NCBI GenBank assembly: GCA_965198285.1
Contig: OZ240251.1
Location: 624,220 to 688,219 of the forward strand
DNA: 64,000 nucleotides
Direction of reading: 5' to 3'
Source: Chloroflexota bacterium
GTDB lineage: Bacteria > Chloroflexota > UBA11872
The notes below the pieces were generated by a model. The model made no database searches. It saw only the letters and a list, made by a program, of their open reading frames with translations, and was not told the origin of the DNA. Shown here one piece after another: positions 5,182 through 50,656 of the stretch; positions within the stretch are counted from its first letter, which is position 1, and each line of letters opens with the position of its first letter. A program made the position numbers and the translations under genes.

Positions 5182-6642
5182 ATGAATACGCCCTTCCACT
5201 TAACGCGCCGCCGGCTGCTTACGGTCGCGCTGGGCGGCGCGGCACTTGGAGCATTGGCCGCCTGCGGCGAGGACACGCCAGCGCCCACGGTGGAGGCGAC
5301 TGCTTCCCCGCCAGCGGCGCCGGTGCCAGCGTCACCCGCGGCTATCTCGTCGCCAGCGGCGCCGGCTTCGACTCCCGCGGTGGCCACGTCGTCACCCGCG
5401 TCGGGCCCACCCGCTGGGACCAGGCTGCCGGACATCGCGGCCCGCGTGCGGCAGGCGCAGGGCGATACCGGCATCCTGCCGCCCGCGCCGGCCACCGCGT
5501 CCGACAGCCCGATCGAGGTGCCGGCTGACATCGTGGCTGCTCGCGCCAACCGGCTGGTAACGCTTAGTGAGCGCGACCAGACCTCGGCGACCGCCTGGCG
5601 CAACATCGGCTGGAAGACCAACTTCGAGCTATCGTTGGTCAAGTTCGACGAGATCTTCTCGGGCGGCGTGCCGCGCGACGGCATCCCGCCCATCGACCGG
5701 CCAAAATTCACCGATTTCGCTGAAGCCGTTCAGTTCATCGCCGGACGCGAGCCCGTGATCGCGCTTCGCATCAACGGCCAGGCTCGCGCCTACCCACTGC
5801 AGATCCTGACCTACCACGAGATAGTGAACGACGTCATCGGCGGCCGGCCGGTCGCCGTCACGTTCTGCCCGCTGTGCAACTCGTCGGTGGTGTTCGACCG
5901 TGAGGTCCTGGGATCGGTCCTGCGCTTCGGCGTCTCCGGCAACCTGCGCAACAGCGACCTCATAATGTGGGACGACGTCACCGAAACCTGGTGGCAGCAG
6001 TTGACCGGCGAGGGCCTTGTGGGGCACCTGGCCGGGGTCACGCTGGACTTCGTCCCGTCGCAGCTGATCTCCTTCGATGAGTTCAAGGCCGCGTTTCCGG
6101 ACGGCCAGGTTCTCTCCCGCGACACCGGGTTCCCGCGGCAGTACGGCCGCAACCCCTACAGCGGCTACGACACAACCGACGGCCGGCCCTTCCTGTTCCA
6201 GGGCCGCATGGACGATCGCCTTCGGGCCACCGAGCGCGTGGTTGCGGTGGAGGTCGGCGATGAGAGTGCGGCCTATCCGTTCACCGAGCTCAGCACCCGG
6301 CGTGTCGTCAACGATGAGGTCGGGGGTGAGAAGATCGTGGTGTTCTGGACGCCCGAAACCTCGTCCGCGCTGGGCAAATCCGCTATCGCCGACGCCCAGG
6401 CGGTTGGGTCGGGCGTCGCGTATGGTCGCGTGGTCGATGGGCGCGAACTAACGTTTACTGTTCAGGACGACGCGTTCACCGACCAGGAGACGGGATCGAC
6501 TTGGGACGTCACAGGCCGCGCGCTGACAGGGCCGCTGGCCGGCGCGGAACTGCCGCCGCTGGTGCACGCCAACCACTTCTGGTTCGCGTGGGCGGCCTTC
6601 AGGCCCGCAACGCGCGTCTACACCGACACCGCGAGTCCCTGA
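5182..6642 (+). CDS. DUF3179 family lipoprotein, paralog 1
   Basis: Signal plus lipobox (LAAC). A Pro/Ala/Ser-rich linker is followed by GGVPRDGIPPIDRPKF...RAYPLQILTYHEIVNDVIGGRPVAVTFCPLCNS...WWQQLTGEG. Confidence 0.8.
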   Translation: MNTPFHLTRRRLLTVALGGAALGALAACGEDTPAPTVEATASPPAAPVPASPAAISSPAAPASTPAVATSSPASGPPAGTRLPDIAARVRQAQGDTGILPPAPATASDSPIEVPADIVAARANRLVTLSERDQTSATAWRNIGWKTNFELSLVKFDEIFSGGVPRDGIPPIDRPKFTDFAEAVQFIAGREPVIALRINGQARAYPLQILTYHEIVNDVIGGRPVAVTFCPLCNSSVVFDREVLGSVLRFGVSGNLRNSDLIMWDDVTETWWQQLTGEGLVGHLAGVTLDFVPSQLISFDEFKAAFPDGQVLSRDTGFPRQYGRNPYSGYDTTDGRPFLFQGRMDDRLRATERVVAVEVGDESAAYPFTELSTRRVVNDEVGGEKIVVFWTPETSSALGKSAIADAQAVGSGVAYGRVVDGRELTFTVQDDAFTDQETGSTWDVTGRALTGPLAGAELPPLVHANHFWFAWAAFRPATRVYTDTASP

Positions 6643-7967
6643 ACCGCCGGATCCCGCGCCGTCGCCTGCTGGCCCTGGCCTCGGCCGCTGGTCTGGCCCT
6701 GGCCGCCTGCGGCGATGCGGCCCCCAGCGAATCGATCACCACGCCGCCGGACGGTTCAAGCGCGGCTGAACAGCCACCGTTTACGGCGGTTGTCCCCCCC
6801 GACACGTCGATTGCGGGCGCTGCCAGCCGCATGCGGCTGCCGCCCGACGTCATCGCTGCCCGCCAGGCAACGCTGGTGCCCGCCGCGCTGGCGGACTTGC
6901 AGCGTGCCCGAGAGTGGCGCATCCAACAGTGGTCCACCAATTTCCGGATCGCCAGTGTCGCCCTTACGGAGTTGCACACCAACGGCCTCGAACGCTATCG
7001 CGCTGAGCCGATCGATTTGCCGCGCTTCGTCGATATCCAGAAGGCCGACACCCTTCTCGACCCTCGCGACCCGCTCATTGCGCATGCCGTCGGATCGGAC
7101 GCCCGCGCCTATCCCCTGCGACTCCTCGTCTGGCACGAGGTCGTCAACGACGTGGTCGATGGTCAGCCTCTGCTGGTCACCTACGACCCGCGCACCAACG
7201 CGGCGCAGGTGTTCGAGCGCCGTCTGCTGGGTTCGGCCATGCGCTTCCGCGCCGTCGATGGCCTCCACCGCGGCGGCCGGCTCCTCTGGGACTCCCTGAC
7301 CCAAAGCTGGTGGCGTCAGTTCACCGGCGAGGCCATCGTTGGTGACTACACCGGCCTGCGCCTCAAGCCACGACCGTCGCTGCTCGTGAGCTACGCGGAG
7401 TTCCGGCAATTGTTCCCCGAGGGCCGGGTTCTCGGTCCCGATAGCCGTCCGGATCGCGACGAAGAGTCTGAATACGGCGCCACCAACTACGCCGGCTATG
7501 ACAGCAGCCCGGAACCGCCGCCGTTGTTCGACGGCGTTCCCGACCCTCGCCTGCCGCCGACCGCGCGTGTGCTGGCGCTGGAACTCAACGGCGAGGCTGC
7601 GGCCTTCGACTTCGGCTACCTGGCCAGCCAGCGCATGGTCAACGACAACGTAGGCGGCCAGTCGATCGTGGCCCTGTGGTCGCCGGGTGCGCTGTCCGTG
7701 CTGGATACGCCGCGGATTGCCGACGCGCGCGATGTAGGAATGGCCGCCATCCACGGCCGCGAGGTCGATGGCCGCGTGCTCACGTTCGAGTTTGCAGAAG
7801 GGACCTTCCACGACCGTGAAACCGGCAGTGTCTGGAGCCTGAGCGGCCGCGCCCAATCAGGCACGCTGGCCGGCGCGCAGTTGCCGCAGCTTCTTCACGG
7901 CAGTCCGCTCTGGTTCGCCTGGGCGGCCTTCTATCCGCAGACCCGGTTGGTGACGCACCCGGCGTAG
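6588..7967 (+). CDS. DUF3179 family lipoprotein, paralog 2; start codon uncertain
   Basis: Tat-like RRRLLALASAAGLALAAC, then ...RAYPLRLLVWHEVVNDVVDGQPLLVTYDP...WWRQFTGEA. The in-frame GTG at 6588 is the most plausible start and overlaps the end of paralog 1. Confidence 0.7.
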   Translation: MGGLQARNARLHRHRESLNRRIPRRRLLALASAAGLALAACGDAAPSESITTPPDGSSAAEQPPFTAVVPPDTSIAGAASRMRLPPDVIAARQATLVPAALADLQRAREWRIQQWSTNFRIASVALTELHTNGLERYRAEPIDLPRFVDIQKADTLLDPRDPLIAHAVGSDARAYPLRLLVWHEVVNDVVDGQPLLVTYDPRTNAAQVFERRLLGSAMRFRAVDGLHRGGRLLWDSLTQSWWRQFTGEAIVGDYTGLRLKPRPSLLVSYAEFRQLFPEGRVLGPDSRPDRDEESEYGATNYAGYDSSPEPPPLFDGVPDPRLPPTARVLALELNGEAAAFDFGYLASQRMVNDNVGGQSIVALWSPGALSVLDTPRIADARDVGMAAIHGREVDGRVLTFEFAEGTFHDRETGSVWSLSGRAQSGTLAGAQLPQLLHGSPLWFAWAAFYPQTRLVTHPA

Positions 7968-10001: not shown

Positions 10002-10469
10002 ATGTCTGAGACAGCGACGTTGAAGGTGGGCGACGAGGCTCCGGACTTCGAGCTTCCGTCGAGACCTAGGGGCGAGGAGCCGTTCAAGCTGAGCGACCAT
10101 CGCGGGTCGACGGTGGTGATCAACTTCGTGCCGGCGGCGTTCTCGCCGACGTGCAGCAACCAGCTCCCCATCATCGAGGAGAAGCTGGCCGGACTCGCCG
10201 ACACGGTGACGGTCGCGATCTCCACGGACAACGGCTGGTCGCTAAAGGCCTGGGCCGAGCAGACCGGCGTGAGCTATCCCGTGCTCAGCGACTTCAACCC
10301 GCTCGGCGCGACAGCCAGCGCGTATGGCGTTTTTCTCGAGGAGACGAACATCGCCAACCGCGTGGTCATCGTGGTCGACGCCGATGGCAAGGTCGCCCAC
10401 ATCGAGACCGCTCCAGACGTGCCGGAACTGCCCGACTACGACCCCGTCATGGCGTGCCTGTCGGGCTGA
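10002..10469 (+). CDS. peroxiredoxin (AhpC/TSA, Bcp-like)
   Basis: MSETATLKVGDEAPDFELP...VVINFVPAAFSPTCSNQL..., with an ordinary peroxidatic Cys in the FxPxxFSPxC context. Confidence 0.85.
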   Translation: MSETATLKVGDEAPDFELPSRPRGEEPFKLSDHRGSTVVINFVPAAFSPTCSNQLPIIEEKLAGLADTVTVAISTDNGWSLKAWAEQTGVSYPVLSDFNPLGATASAYGVFLEETNIANRVVIVVDADGKVAHIETAPDVPELPDYDPVMACLSG

Positions 10470-14046: not shown

Positions 14047-14505
14047 TTAGCTGAGAATTCGCAGCACCTCTTCGGGCATCAGCCGCCCGATGTTGGTGGC
14101 GCTGTACACCGCGTGCTGCACCACGCGGTTCGCGTCCAGTATGAACGCGCTGGCCTGGTGCGACTGCCGGTCCTCGTTCCGGTAGGCCCCCAACGCGTCC
14201 ACCGAGTCGGGATAGGCGAGATCACCTACCAGTGGCACGTCCAACTGCAGCCGCTCGCGCAGCCCGGCCGAGTCCGCCGCCGAGTCGACCGACAGGCCCA
14301 CCACCTGCACGCCCAGCGCCGTGAACGCATCCAGTACGTAGCTGTAGGCGGCCAACTGCCGCCGACAATGCGATCACCAGTGGCCGCGATAGAACAGCAG
14401 CACCGCCGGTGCGGCGTCCAGGTCGTCGGCAATCCGGGCCGGCGAGCCGTCGGCCCAGCGCCCCGTCAGGTCGGGAAATTGGTCACCGGGATTCAGTCGC
14501 GTCAT
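14047..14505 (-). CDS. Candidate selenoprotein: thioredoxin-fold redoxin (Prx-like) with a UxxC motif
   Basis: Minus-strand translation from ATG 14505 gives MTRLNPGDQFPDLTGRWADGSPARIADDLDAAPAVLLFYRGHW-[TGA]-SHCRRQLAAYSYVLDAFTALGVQVVGLSVDS.... The TGA (14376..14374) sits where the first Cys of the redoxin CxxC motif is expected. Ten nt downstream is a perfect hairpin GGCGGC-AGUUG-GCCGCC (14363..14347) compatible with a bacterial selenocysteine insertion element. Confidence 0.6.
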
Positions 14506-14659
14506 GACGGCGGTCCACACGAGCGCAGCGCCTCCGCAGCGTGGCGGCTGGTTGACCGGCGGTCAAACTCGGTGGGCCAGTCCGCGATGCTGCGCTTCCC
14601 GTGGCCGCTCCGGTCTGCCAGAATCGGTCAGCCGGCAGTTCCCCGCGTGAGTAAACCCT

Positions 14660-15004
14660 ATGGCGACCAATTCCGAGCCCACCGTTGTGGCCTACCTCAA
14701 GCCCGTCTGCGGCTGGAGCGCCGGCGTCCGCGCCGTGCTCGACAAGTACAGCCTGGCCTACGAGGACAAGGACATCATCAACGACGCCAGCAGCTACTAC
14801 GAGATGGTTGCCAAGAGCGGCCAGCCGCTCTCTCCCTGTGTCGTGGTAGATGGCCGCATGCTGGCTGACGTCAGCGGCGAGGAAGTCGAAGCCTGGCTGG
14901 CCTCCAAGGGCTACATCCAGCAAAACAACCTCCCCACCCCCGTCCCCATCGACCAGGCCTGCGCCGACGAAGTCCACGCCGCCAGCGTCGTCTTCGAGGA
15001 GTAG
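14660..15004 (+). CDS. glutaredoxin-like protein (CGWS motif)
   Basis: 114 aa; VVAYLKPVCGWSAGVRAVLDKYSLAYEDKDI...CVVVDGRML has a Grx-like thioredoxin fold. It is divergent from the candidate selenoprotein gene. Confidence 0.65.
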   Translation: MATNSEPTVVAYLKPVCGWSAGVRAVLDKYSLAYEDKDIINDASSYYEMVAKSGQPLSPCVVVDGRMLADVSGEEVEAWLASKGYIQQNNLPTPVPIDQACADEVHAASVVFEE

Positions 15005-15202
15005 CAAGGCCAAGAATAGGTTTCTTCGGCGACGCCGCGGTCGTCGAGGTAAGCGCTCCTGATCCGAAGAGCTGATAGCGTGCAGGGCCAACGAGTGCGT
15101 GCGTGCCGCGTACCTCTGGGGTATATTACTCTGGAAGTAGGTGCTTCCTCGGCGAGCTTGCCGTAGAGAGGGCACGACTTGGCGCGCGTTCCGATAACTG
15201 TA

Positions 15203-15526
15203 ATGGGATTTCACTGTGAGCGCTGTAGCCACGAGTGGATTCCTCGAAGCCCCGATTCGAATCCACGGGTCTGCCCCAGTTGCAAGAGCCCCTATTGGGA
15301 TACGCCGAGAAAGTCGGGTTCGGCAACGACGTATGGCGAATTCAGAAGGCGAATAAAGAGAGTACTGGAGCGCAACACAGATGGACTGTCTTGGACGGAA
15401 GTACGTACGGCGTCGAGACTACCCCAGATCTTACCAAATAACGCTTGGGTGCGGAGGCTTGGAGGCGATATCGGGCTCGAAAGGACGCGGGAGCGAGGGT
15501 CCATGATCTGGCGGCTCAAGGCCTAG
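15203..15526 (+). CDS. hypothetical zinc-ribbon protein (low-GC island)
   Basis: MGFHCERCSHEW...CPSCKSPYW (CxxC...CxxC), then a basic, possibly DNA-binding tail. Local GC is ~52% against ~67% nearby. Confidence 0.4.
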   Translation: MGFHCERCSHEWIPRSPDSNPRVCPSCKSPYWDTPRKSGSATTYGEFRRRIKRVLERNTDGLSWTEVRTASRLPQILPNNAWVRRLGGDIGLERTRERGSMIWRLKA

Positions 15527-15543
15527 CCTCGAGTGTTGAGCCA

Positions 15544-16002
15544 GTGATTGAAACGAAAGAACTAAACCCGGCCTTTTATACCGTAGGATATGAGGGTCGT
15601 TCCATCCAGGAATTGATCGATGCTCTGGAGCAGAATGCCATTAGCACAGTAATAGATATTCGCTTTTCACCTGTTAGTAGATTTCGGCCAGAGTTCAGTA
15701 AGCGAAACCTCGCTTCGCTCCTGCGATCTAGCGGTATCGACTACGTTCACTATCGCGATCTCGGCGTACCACGGGACATTCGAGATCAGGCCTTCCATCT
15801 GGGCAAGCGCGAATTCATCTGGGAGTGGTATGAGACGAATGTTGTTCGGAGACACGCGGTTCGCAATCTCCATTGGTTTTTCAACTGTGCAGACCACCCC
15901 GTAGCGCTTCTCTGCATGGAAGCCGACTCTCGAACTTGCCACCGGCACAGGTTGGCTGGGGCGCTTGAGCGCGTGTCGGGGCTGAAGTTCGTGGACATCT
16001 GA
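15544..16002 (+). CDS. DUF488 family protein
   Basis: VIETKELNPAFYTVGYEGRSIQELIDALEQNAISTVIDIRFSPVSRFRPEFSKRNLASLLRSSGIDYVHYRDLG...ALLCMEADSRTCHRHRL; the conserved C-terminal C-x-E-x5-CHR motif of DUF488 is present. A GTG start is assumed. Confidence 0.6.
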   Translation: MIETKELNPAFYTVGYEGRSIQELIDALEQNAISTVIDIRFSPVSRFRPEFSKRNLASLLRSSGIDYVHYRDLGVPRDIRDQAFHLGKREFIWEWYETNVVRRHAVRNLHWFFNCADHPVALLCMEADSRTCHRHRLAGALERVSGLKFVDI

Positions 16003-16019
16003 CGTCCGAGGGCTCAGAA

Positions 16020-16814
16020 ATGCTTGAATGGGAGACTCAGAGGATTCTCATAACGGTACGCACCTATCCGGTCCCGGCATGGCACGGCGGAGAAATCTCG
16101 TGCACCGCAGGCATCTCGGGGGCGGGGAAATGGATCCGGCTTCATCCTGTTCCCTACAGGCTCATTGACAAGGATCAGAGATTCAAGAAATACCAGTGGA
16201 TTGAAGTATCTCTGAAGAAGTCTGAAGACCCTCGTCCTGAAAGCTTCACTCCCAATCTAGATGACTTGCGAGTTGTCTCTGACGTGCTGGGGACCGGTAA
16301 CTCATGGTCTGATCGACGCGCAGTGGTGACGCCACACAGAGATGTTTCAATGTGCAACCTTCAGCGCATAAGCAGCCGTCTTGAGGGTCCAACCCTGGGA
16401 TTTGTACGCGCACGCCAAATACGCCGGCTTGAGATTGAGGCAGCAGATCCAAACTGGCGCGAAGACCAGCTCGCCAGGCTCAGTCAGCGAAGCATGTTCG
16501 TTAAGTCAGCGACAGAAATGCTGGAGAAGATTCCGTTTAAGTTTAGCTATCACTATTTTTGTGACGATTCGGACTGCAGTGGTCACGCGATGGGGTGCAA
16601 TGACTGGGAGATGTTACAGGCATACCGTCGGTGGTCGGCCGAATATGGTGAGAAATGGGAGTCTGCGTTCCGAAACAGGTTTGAGTATGAAATGTCGGAG
16701 ATAGGGGACACGCACTTCTTTGTCGGAACTCACAGTCAGTATCCCAAAACGTGGATGATTGTGGGTATTTGGTATCCGCCGAAAACTGCGTATATGGACC
16801 AACTGTTAGGCTAG
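16020..16814 (+). CDS. hypothetical protein with a Cys-rich segment (low-GC island)
   Basis: 264 aa with no recognisable family; ...FKFSYHYFCDDSDCSGHAMGCNDWE.... The ATG at 16020 has a plausible spacing from the preceding gene. Confidence 0.5.
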   Translation: MLEWETQRILITVRTYPVPAWHGGEISCTAGISGAGKWIRLHPVPYRLIDKDQRFKKYQWIEVSLKKSEDPRPESFTPNLDDLRVVSDVLGTGNSWSDRRAVVTPHRDVSMCNLQRISSRLEGPTLGFVRARQIRRLEIEAADPNWREDQLARLSQRSMFVKSATEMLEKIPFKFSYHYFCDDSDCSGHAMGCNDWEMLQAYRRWSAEYGEKWESAFRNRFEYEMSEIGDTHFFVGTHSQYPKTWMIVGIWYPPKTAYMDQLLG

Positions 16815-16869
16815 ATGAAAGTGCTAGAAAAAGGCGACAGTGTGTGTTTACTGTAGTTATGAGTTCAGT

Positions 16870-33293: not shown

Positions 33294-33412
33294 CCCTCTC
33301 ATCTTGCAGCACGCGCTGCCGGAATTGGCACCCTCTCGAGCGTTCGCCCGAAGGTTGCCCGGCTTCGTTGGGCCGACTCCCTCCACCAATCGTGATGAGA
33401 GGTATGTCACGT
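33294..33412 (-). promoter_or_regulatory. SAM-I (S-box) riboswitch
   Basis: Minus strand: CUCUCAUCACGAUUGGUGGAGGGAGUCGGCCCAACGAAGCCGGGCAACC...GGUGCCAAUUCCGGCAGCG...GCUGCAAGAUGAGAGG. This matches the SAM-I consensus helix by helix (P1 CUCUCAUC/GAUGAGAG, and GGUGCCAAUUCC) and lies ~200 nt upstream of the ThrC-like gene. Confidence 0.8.
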
Positions 33413-47692: not shown

Positions 47693-48433
47693 CGCCCGGC
47701 TGACCGTCACGGCCGATGCGGCCGGCGCCCGCGACCTGGCGGTCGGCGGCCTCTCGCAGGGCTCCGGGATGGGCTGACTGCGGGCGCTTGGATCCGTTCG
47801 AGGAGGACTCCGGTCTGTCGTGCTCGGACCAGAACCGCCGTCTGGACACGCATCCCGAAACCGTGAGGCGCTGGAGGGACTAGGGCGTGCGGCCCAGGGC
47901 GCGTCACCGCATGATGGCGCATTTGAAGCTGCCTGACTCGCTGGGCCTCGGGCGCGGGCGCCGGCAGCCCCTGACGCTGCCAATGGCGTCGTCGGCTCGA
48001 CGCCGGCTCAGGCCAGCGATCCCAACGGCCTGACCAGCTAGCCGCCGACGGTCGATGCGCCGGTCCATCCGCTGGTGCTACGCAGGTCGCACCGCTGCCG
48101 CTTCCCGCTGCGTCGGGAAAGTGCCTGGGACGACCCGCCGGCCCGTGCTACGATAGGCGACTGCCTGAAAAGGCATCCGCGCATTTCGGCGGCGCTTGAT
48201 TCATCAGCCGCCCCCGGCAGCGCACCGGCGGAATCCGCTGGGCGCGGGCGCGACGGCACCTTAACAGGGGAAGAGTGAGTGTGAGTGCTCGCGTCATTCC
48301 ATAGTGTCTGGCGCGACGGTAGATCCACGTGATTGAGGACGACTCGGTGGCTCTGGGGTCCGGCCCAGCCGGTGCCCCGGGGATATTGCGATCTATTCAC
48401 GCCGTTATCGGCGTGTTGTGAGATTGATTTGGC

Positions 48434-49948
<1,515 letters not shown>

Positions 49949-50128: not shown

Positions 50129-50455
50129 GGAGCGTCGGGCCGGTCAGGCGGCCGCTCCGGTTCACGCCGGAGAGGAAAGTCCGCACTTCACAGAGCGCGG
50201 TAGCGGGTAACACCCGTCGCCCAAGTCGGTTCACGCCGGCAAGGGCCGGAACAGGGGCACAGTGACGATGCCCACGCCCCCAGCCGGGGGCGCGGGAGTG
50301 AAACGGCTAACCTCTACCTGAAGCAAGGCCAAGTCGGGACGCCACCAGGCTGCTCGCCCAGTCCCAGGTAGGCTGCACGAGGCCGGCGGCAACGCCGGTC
50401 CCAGATAGATGGCCGCCCACGACAGAATGCGGCTTATCGACCGGTCCGACGCTCT
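50129..50455 (+). ncRNA. rnpB: RNase P RNA (bacterial type A)
   Basis: GGAGAGGAAAGTCCG (P4/CR-I)...GGTAACACC...AGCAAGGCCAA...GGTAGGCTGC...CCAGATAGATGGCCGCCCACGACAGAATGCGGCTTATCG (CR-IV/V); P1 pairing GAGCGTCGGGCCGGT / ACCGGTCCGACGCTC. Strong similarity to E. coli M1 RNA motifs. Confidence 0.85.

Positions 50456-50581: not shown

Positions 50582-50656
<75 letters not shown>

Follow-up and report, generated by a model that had tools for sequence, protein, structure and literature searches.

The window, a 64,000-nt stretch of Chloroflexota contig OZ240251.1 (assembly GCA_965198285.1, forward-strand positions 624,220 to 688,219), carries on its minus strand a Prx-like gene in which an in-frame TGA stands at the place of an active-site cysteine. 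A hairpin resembling a bacterial selenocysteine insertion sequence (SECIS) begins ten nucleotides further on. Our analysis indicates that this TGA very probably specifies selenocysteine (Sec). The features of the gene are as follows.

14505-14047, minus strand: putative selenoprotein gene, Prx-like (AhpC/TSA fold), recognised by sequence, translation and a PF00578 match
14505-14503, minus strand: start codon ATG, a start kept in the clade relatives
14376-14374, minus strand: in-frame UGA, codon 44, inferred to be read as Sec; it aligns with the N-terminal Cys of WCxxC
14367-14365, minus strand: codon TGT of Cys47, the partner in U-x-x-C, invariant in the family alignment
14363-14347, minus strand: SECIS-like hairpin GGCGGC-AGUUG-GCCGCC, inside the coding sequence, 10 nt after the UGA, in a conserved register
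14363-14358, minus strand: 5' arm of the hairpin, GGCGGC
14357-14353, minus strand: loop of the hairpin, AGUUG
14352-14347, minus strand: 3' arm of the hairpin, GCCGCC
14355-14353, minus strand: TTG Leu codon in the hairpin loop, which supplies the invariant loop U-U

The gene comprises 152 sense positions, counting Sec at 44, and the terminator TAA at 14049-14047. Its translation begins MTRLNPGDQF and reads ...AVLLFYRGHW-(TGA)-SHCRRQLAAY... around the TGA, which is followed by S45-H46-C47 and in all by 108 further sense codons up to the TAA; the active-site motif is W-U-S-H-C. An earlier reading of this DNA, made from the letters and their open reading frames and hereafter called the sequence-only reading, had described a minus-strand frame running about 100 residues past the TGA. 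The frame and its translation were found as written. With the TGA read as Cys, the Pfam profile PF00578 (AhpC-TSA) matched residues 6-131, or profile positions 1-123 of 124, with E = 9e-20 and 71.3 bits against a cut-off of 26. Because this match crosses the TGA, the two halves belong to one domain.

A genome scan yielded 22 Chloroflexota loci, 67-95% identical to the query, several of them on closed chromosomes and many from sponge metagenomes. All 22 had W-TGA-S-H-C at the same codon and an intact frame downstream. Among the 23 distinct clade sequences codon 44 was TGA in every case, never TAA or TAG; there was no further internal stop and no frameshift, the terminators were TAA or TAG, and the Cys47 codon varied synonymously between TGT and TGC. 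Three divergent clade members (L067-L069, 59-70% identity), taken from a JGI metagenome, an open-ocean BATS metagenome and an assembly at NCBI, also carried the TGA and the same gene order. It recurred at the same codon in separate lineages represented by loci L029, L045/L047 and L071-L075. In all, approximately 35 relatives with a TGA were examined; it was always in this codon, and no other stop codon was seen there.

In 26 homologues the position of codon 44 is instead Cys (TGC or TGT), within an invariant LFYRGhWCxxC. The sequence-only reading had placed the TGA on the first Cys of FYRGHWCxxC, and alignment to the invariant FYRGhW-C-xx-C of the Cys homologues bore this out. Distant Cys homologues (29-42% identity) were found in Actinoallomurus, Ktedonobacteria, Gemmatimonadota, Dehalococcoidia and others. 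As judged from this alignment, TGA against TGC/TGT is a putative Sec/Cys pair of the classical kind. The Pro of the Cys-form motif C-P-[Y/F]-C is replaced in two of the three first-seen Sec lineages and in several later ones (U-S-H-C, U-G-Y-C, U-A-Y-C, U-T-H-C). A quick neighbour-joining tree placed three Sec lineages among the Cys forms, with retrieval patterns that favoured Cys forms, and a search of a representative protein library suggests that Sec forms dominate the nearest sequence space.

Selection on the coding sequence was estimated with Nei-Gojobori dN/dS against the window. Codons 1-43 gave ratios of 0.23-0.42, and codons 45-152 gave ratios of 0.05-0.17; the part downstream of the TGA is under tighter purifying selection than the part upstream. 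Within the clade, the six codons from TGA to TTG showed only synonymous changes (TCG/TCA, CAT/CAC, TGT/TGC, CGG/AGG/CGC/CGA) and are therefore translated in this frame. Genome-wide reassignment of UGA is ruled out, because TGA is the commonest ordinary stop (43 of 66 long open reading frames) and terminates the adjacent MDH gene.

The hairpin is 17 nt long, with a 6-bp stem and a 5-nt loop, and 16 nt separate the UGA from the apical loop. Published criteria for bacterial SECIS (bSECIS) elements give an upper stem of 4-16 bp, an apical loop of 3-9 nt, a distance of 16-37 nt from UGA to loop, and a loop with a G in its first two positions followed by G or U (PMC13188914). With its 6 bp, its 5-nt loop A-G-U-U-G and its 16-nt spacing the hairpin lies within all of these. 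The sequence-only reading had proposed a perfect 6-bp hairpin ten nucleotides past the UGA that would fit a bacterial Sec insertion element; the hairpin was recovered at 14363-14347, and besides the published criteria compensatory covariation now speaks for the fit.

All TGA forms share one register, in which positions 11-16 after the UGA pair with positions 22-27; they have 6 of 6 standard pairs there and a loop of N-G-U-U-R, whereas Cys forms reach 4 of 6 pairs at most and none of the 26 has the stem. Within the clade the fifth pair is G-C, G-U or A-U, the last arising from a synonymous CGG to CGA change that matches an Ala to Val replacement on the opposite arm. In L067 and L068 the second pair has turned from G-C to C-G, an Ala to Gly replacement on one arm being matched by a synonymous change of CGG to CGC on the opposite arm. 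The five loci L071-L075, from contigs with GC contents of 0.47-0.72, all keep the loop AGUUG and the 10-nt offset, and their stems are mutually compensated: GUCGGC/GCCGAC, GUCAGC/GCUGAC, ACCGGC/GCCGGU, AUCGGC/GCCGAU and GUCAGC/GCUGAU. In an alignment of 16 sequences, 100% of the 96 cells were paired, as opposed to 9-59% when the partner was slid by 1-3 columns. Changes on both sides affect four of the six pairs and 14 cells (G-C to C-G, U-A or A-U), and none of 500 shuffles attained the covariation score of this alignment. Pairing is kept with the arm-to-arm amino acid combinations R..A, R..D, H..G, D..D and S..D.

The Leu codon in the loop is always TTG or TTA, which make up 8.1% and 0.4%, respectively, of the Leu codons of the genome. 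TTA is no start codon; the conservation of TTG/TTA therefore reflects the loop and not a start site. A composite motif of TGA, 10 nt, 6-bp stem and NGUUR loop occurred 36 times in 1.51 Mb (window and loci, both strands), every time at this codon of this family and nowhere else. An extended lower stem pairing the UGA region, predicted in the window, was rejected as a candidate part of the element, because L001 and other members do not retain it.

Alignments to solved Prx, BCP and ResA structures placed Sec44 at the conserved Thr/Ser of the peroxiredoxin motif PxxxTxxC and Cys47 at the peroxidatic Cys of true peroxiredoxins. The position of the catalytic Arg is Ala here and Ala, Ser or Pro in the core family. 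The protein thus does not have the peroxiredoxin triad (Thr, peroxidatic Cys/Sec in PxxxTxxC, Arg); it has a thioredoxin-like U-x-x-C with Sec in the N-terminal place, U44-S-H-C47, and not a T-x-x-U. From Sec at the Prx Thr position and the absent Arg it follows that the product would be a thioredoxin-style UxxC Prx-like oxidoreductase. Our alignments agree with PRX_like2 as CDD describes it, a CxxC protein that has its second Cys at the peroxidatic position and is without the Thr/Arg triad. The best structure-profile matches were BCP of A. pernix (2cx3, E = 1.6e-19) and ResA of B. subtilis (3c71, E = 5.6e-16). No NCBIfam model matched at its cut-off: PrxU NF040737 gave 23.7 of 270 bits, the SelL-related NF040769 26 of 120, and PRK13189 36.5 of 211. 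A structure model of the Cys-form proxy P0014 was unusable (pLDDT 46). A domain that begins as early as residue 6 leaves no room for a signal peptide, and the protein, which has no membrane anchor either, is from its sequence predicted to be cytoplasmic.

We favour the explanation that the gene encodes a cytoplasmic, thioredoxin-fold Prx-like thiol-disulfide oxidoreductase whose attacking active-site residue is Sec, and put its probability at roughly 85%. If decoding follows the mechanism known from bacteria, SelB-GTP with its Sec-tRNA(Sec) would bind the hairpin loop when the UGA enters the ribosomal A site. Delivery of Sec would compete with release factor 2, and translation would go on for 108 codons. 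In the protein, the selenolate of Sec44 would attack a disulfide, a sulfenic acid or possibly a peroxide as its oxidised substrate and form a selenenyl-sulfide with Cys47, which a thiol partner, perhaps the glutaredoxin-like (Grx-like) protein encoded by the divergent neighbour, would then reduce. The redox centre would be of the thioredoxin/ResA U-x-x-C type rather than that of a classical peroxidase.

Several observations weigh against this explanation. No tRNA(Sec) was found in the window or in 25 Sec-form loci, and tblastn with E. coli SelA, SelB and SelD had no match in the window and none in 61 loci. A search with SelA from Miltoncostaea oceani (L066) returned 120 matches, none tied to clade chromosomes, which is not evidence of absence; the Sec machinery of the clade is assumed. 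The 64-kb window yielded no second selenoprotein gene. The 16-nt spacing is at the lower edge of the published range, and the stem lies in coding sequence, so that protein constraint could explain part of its conservation. Both the substrate and the reductant are wholly inferred, the gene is known from sequence alone, and the organism is uncultured.

The sequence-only reading had expected the Sec machinery to lie outside the window, and this agrees with the searches: selA, selB, selC and selD were not in the window or in the fetched flanks. A SelA tblastn against plasmids produced no Chloroflexota match. Sec decoding is known in some Chloroflexi, including an unusual 8/4 tRNA(Sec) (PMC1794560, PMC5389517), and our literature search found nothing on Sec in sponge-associated Chloroflexota or SAR202. 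Scanning the window for hairpin plus TGA returned, besides the selenoprotein gene, only off-frame junk. A scan of TGA-joined pairs of open reading frames based on third-position GC was too noisy in this genome of 66% GC.

Among the alternatives, recoding without Sec is given the most weight. The UGA could be read through with a near-cognate Trp or Cys, or Cys could be inserted by a tRNA(UCA)/SelB-like system, the hairpin being the recoding signal; a system of this kind that delivers Cys has reportedly been described by Mukai and colleagues. All of the evidence for read-through fits this equally well, and so do the empty searches for selA, selB, selC and selD in the window and fetched loci. However, the UGA falls exactly on the redox-active Cys position, as in classical Sec/Cys pairs, and the hairpin, with G-U in its loop, fits a model that is specific to Sec. 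Cys could moreover be had by a one-base change to TGC or TGT, the state of the 26 Cys homologues, and since UGA and hairpin have been kept across many lineages with Cys only one base away, a benefit specific to Sec is indicated. The UxxC proteins of PF00578 are in addition an established selenoprotein family (PMC2398784). We therefore consider recoding without Sec unlikely. A broader version, in which the clade has no canonical SelA/SelB and a non-canonical system reads the UGA and AGUUG hairpin as a Sec-independent recoding signal across several phyla, appears to us a long shot; an example of such a system would be a SelB-like factor that, with an unusual tRNA(UCA), brings in Cys or some other amino acid.

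The public gene calls raise the possibility of a split gene, in which the UGA ends a 43-residue peptide, a 102-residue part starts at TTG 14355, and the pieces might assemble non-covalently. Exactly these two pieces are annotated: in at least 30 public assemblies, closed chromosomes included, the gene is broken into a 43-aa frame and one of about 100 aa (102 aa here), the second called from the TTG in the hairpin loop (window frame 14047..14355). The loci L071-L075, five distant truncated forms whose DNA was informative, behave alike, all having a frame of 43-48 aa, an 18-nt gap and a frame of about 110 aa, with the TGA at the same codon. When the post-TGA fragment was searched against a library of 1.84 billion representative proteins (50%-identity representatives), 59 clusters were found. 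More than half were proteins of 100-117 aa that aligned from residue 1, whereas full-length Cys forms aligned from about residue 50. The database relatives of the C-terminal fragment are 100-117 aa long and start 'MA[AD][YF]', and all eight truncated proteins that were retrieved start 'MAD[F/Y]'. TTG can also serve as a start codon, and it is strongly conserved here. Against two separate proteins, the codon is TTA, which is no start, in at least seven loci (including L013, L014, L016, L021, L068 and L029), and no Shine-Dalgarno sequence precedes the TTG. The synonymous-only codons between TGA and TTG include that of the essential Cys47, the C-terminal piece would be devoid of the whole active site, and a start site leaves the covariation of the stem unexplained. 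A split gene is on these grounds highly improbable.

A similarly small chance is left to the proposal that the hairpin is not a SECIS but a by-product of the conserved ...CRRQLAA... peptide, or an element that serves pausing or stability in general, the UGA being decoded or tolerated in some other way. The stem does lie within a conserved coding segment, its local fold is by itself unremarkable (z = -1.9), and 6-bp stems arise by chance at about 0.4% of positions in GC-rich genomes. In the window, 0.375% of positions have a 6/6 stem in this register, and 0.22% when a G is also demanded in the first two loop positions. It is its conservation, and not its local fold, that places the hairpin beyond chance. 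Cys forms with similar peptides do not have the stem: L048, which also reads ...QLAAY, has 3 of 6 pairs, and L043 and L044, the nearest relatives of the Sec-form L029, have 2 and 4. The stem is present if and only if the TGA is, and the amino acids of the two arms co-vary so that pairing persists. This arm-to-arm compensation argues against protein constraint as the cause of stem conservation.

A pseudogene, nonsense mutation or sequencing or assembly error at codon 44, which a TGA in an otherwise ordinary redoxin gene would resemble in a single genome and of which the Cys-form relative L042 offers a real example, can be practically dismissed, because the same TGA stands in approximately 35 independent assemblies, closed long-read chromosomes among them, and the frame behind it is under strong purifying selection with no secondary stops or frameshifts; the sequence-only reading had named these as possible refutations, and they fail on the same grounds. 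The L042 lesion (Ktedonobacteraceae, 6001-6372) is a CAG to TAG change two codons past CxxC, not at the Cys codon, and is confined to one metagenome-assembled genome; either an ordinary nonsense mutation or an assembly error is the probable explanation. Frameshifts were seen in L053. The 6.3-kb contig of L003 (JAKZSW010000072.1) is labelled 'Candidatus Tectimicrobiota', and its gene is 93% and its neighbours 93-98% identical to the Chloroflexota clade; the contig has probably been mis-binned, rather than acquired by horizontal transfer.

Returning to the Sec-containing oxidoreductase, the closest known proteins are the Prx-like UxxC selenoproteins. These have been known since 2005, a 'Prx-like protein' being reported in the Sargasso Sea study (PMC1088965); the GOS (Global Ocean Sampling) study has 225 sequences of 'Prx-like 1, pfam00578, UxxC' (PMC2398784), and a 2026 review lists a 'Prx-like thiol:disulfide oxidoreductase, PF00578, UxxC/UxxU' (PMC13188914). 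The present protein shares with them the PF00578 domain, U-x-x-C rather than T-x-x-U, many Cys homologues, abundance in marine metagenomes, and a SECIS directly downstream in the coding region (PMC1088965, PMC2398784, PMC1794560, PMC13188914). It differs in that its host is an uncultured marine or sponge-associated Chloroflexota and not one of the Deltaproteobacteria or an unassigned read. The motif here is W-U-S-H-C, and the protein is placed by domain and motif with the Prx-like UxxC group, whose reference members include Geobacter WP_010940744.1. The 'Prx-like, UxxC' label of the sequence-only reading was upheld, as PF00578 and UxxC match the published family (PMC1088965, PMC2398784). By its sequence the gene product is very probably a Prx-like UxxC selenoprotein, a newly found member, in a marine and often sponge-associated Chloroflexota clade, of a kind that is itself known.

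With Sec-peroxiredoxins (TxxU, PrxU NF040737) the protein has in common the Pfam family, the fold, a redox-defence context and one Sec per protein. In those proteins, however, Sec takes the place of the peroxidatic Cys, whereas here it stands at the Thr three residues earlier, the peroxidatic position is still Cys, and Arg is replaced by Ala. A peroxiredoxin-like family protein (cd02970, UxxS) is a recent addition to the selenoprotein families (PMC13188914). By their description these proteins also have a Prx-like scaffold with Sec first in the motif; they are listed as UxxS, whereas the second motif position here is an invariant Cys. Among the ResA/TlpA-type oxidoreductases, ResA has a motif that the W-C-x-x-C motif resembles, but unlike ResA the protein has no signal peptide or membrane anchor, and it differs from BCP/PrxQ in having no Thr/Arg and in carrying Sec.

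The minimal SECIS of E. coli fdhF is reportedly (Liu et al. 1998) a 17-nt upper stem-loop about 11 nt past the UGA. Like the fdhF SECIS and the bSECIS consensus, the present element is a 17-nt hairpin 10 nt past the UGA, with G-U in the apical loop and within the coding sequence. Unlike the fdhF SECIS it has no bulged U, a loop of AGUUG as opposed to the GGUC type, and no conserved lower stem; binding by SelB is putative.

These results amount mainly to an annotation correction, which is sound and useful, would not surprise a specialist and overturns no current understanding. Truncated calls may be rescued by a rule that demands TGA, 10 nt, a 6-bp stem, an NGUUR loop and the context FYRGxW-x-xxC. 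The gene implies Sec decoding in an abundant marine and sponge-symbiont Chloroflexota clade, which would therefore need selenium; such a need is relevant to the exchange of trace elements within sponge holobionts and to the way in which these aerobes cope with oxidative stress. The family also represents a natural coding-region SECIS, in which the loop and the 10-nt spacing are fixed and compensatory drift of the stem changes the encoded amino acids with it, and the family would be useful for modelling SelB-SECIS recognition.

Two other redox genes of the window are relevant to the selenoprotein.

14660-15004, plus strand: Grx-like gene with the motif C-G-W-S, matching PF00462, divergent from the selenoprotein gene
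10002-10469, plus strand: ordinary Cys peroxiredoxin

Both had been pointed out in the sequence-only reading and were confirmed, the first by its PF00462 match and the second at these coordinates. The Grx-like gene is adjacent to and divergent from the selenoprotein gene in all 22 clade loci of the genome scan and in L067 and L069; the L068 contig ends before the Grx-like side. In the other Sec lineages the selenoprotein gene has no such neighbour. As a family-wide partner the Grx-like gene was rejected, its synteny being confined to the Chloroflexota clade, and because the synteny is absent from other Sec lineages the Grx-like protein is only a candidate partner. Within the clade it is a possible redox partner of the selenoprotein.

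Upstream of the selenoprotein gene, GTG 14520 was ruled out as a start codon by an in-frame TGA at -12 in L001 and by the conserved ATG 14505. A 15-nt motif, GCCGCCACGCTGCGG, lies at 14534-14548 on the minus strand, 25-40 nt upstream of that ATG. It is nearly unchanged in most of the clade, and the surrounding intergenic sequence is variable; GCCGCCACGCTGCGG could be a regulatory site or an element of the 5' untranslated region, in a stretch common to the divergent Grx-like gene. A sigma-70-like promoter was not recognised upstream of the selenoprotein gene.

On the far side of the Grx-like gene, an island at 15004-16869 (compare L064, 7444-9352) is swapped in and out between this gene and pheT. 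In the window and in L002 it holds a Zn-ribbon-like open reading frame (15179-15526), a DUF488 protein (15445-16002) and a 264-aa protein (16020-16814) with no Pfam match. In a closed contig from a different assembly (L064/L065, approximately 98% DNA identity to the window) the same island holds DarT and Macro, a DarTG-like toxin-antitoxin or defence pair, and yet another, third version is present in L001.

Two adjacent DUF3179 (PF11376) genes lie at 5182-6642 and 6501-7967 on the plus strand. DUF3179 is listed with Sec forms (UxxC/T) (PMC13188914). The first of the two belongs to the Cys forms (...TFCPLCNSS...); from the second the Cys has been lost (...TYDPRTNAA...).

Two odd tRNA genes stand in tandem, 4 nt apart, on the plus strand. 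The first (61686-61760) folds into a perfect class-I cloverleaf with the anticodon loop CUACUAA and the anticodon ACU, nominally Ser/AGU, but does not have the long variable arm typical of tRNA-Ser. The second (61765-61840) has an 8-nt anticodon loop, for which ARAGORN gives the 4-base anticodon UGCA, and an encoded CCA end; it is weaker, with 40 bits in Rfam. Neither is a tRNA-Sec, because neither has a UCA anticodon.

Directly after a 16S rRNA gene (48426-49946) come RNase P RNA (50136-50452) and tRNA-Met (50582-50656), all on the plus strand. The 23S rRNA is absent from the remaining 13 kb of the window; the rRNA genes are unlinked, with rnpB in place of spacer and 23S. An ordinary SAM-I riboswitch (Rfam RF00162, 77 bits) lies at 33296-33401 on the minus strand.

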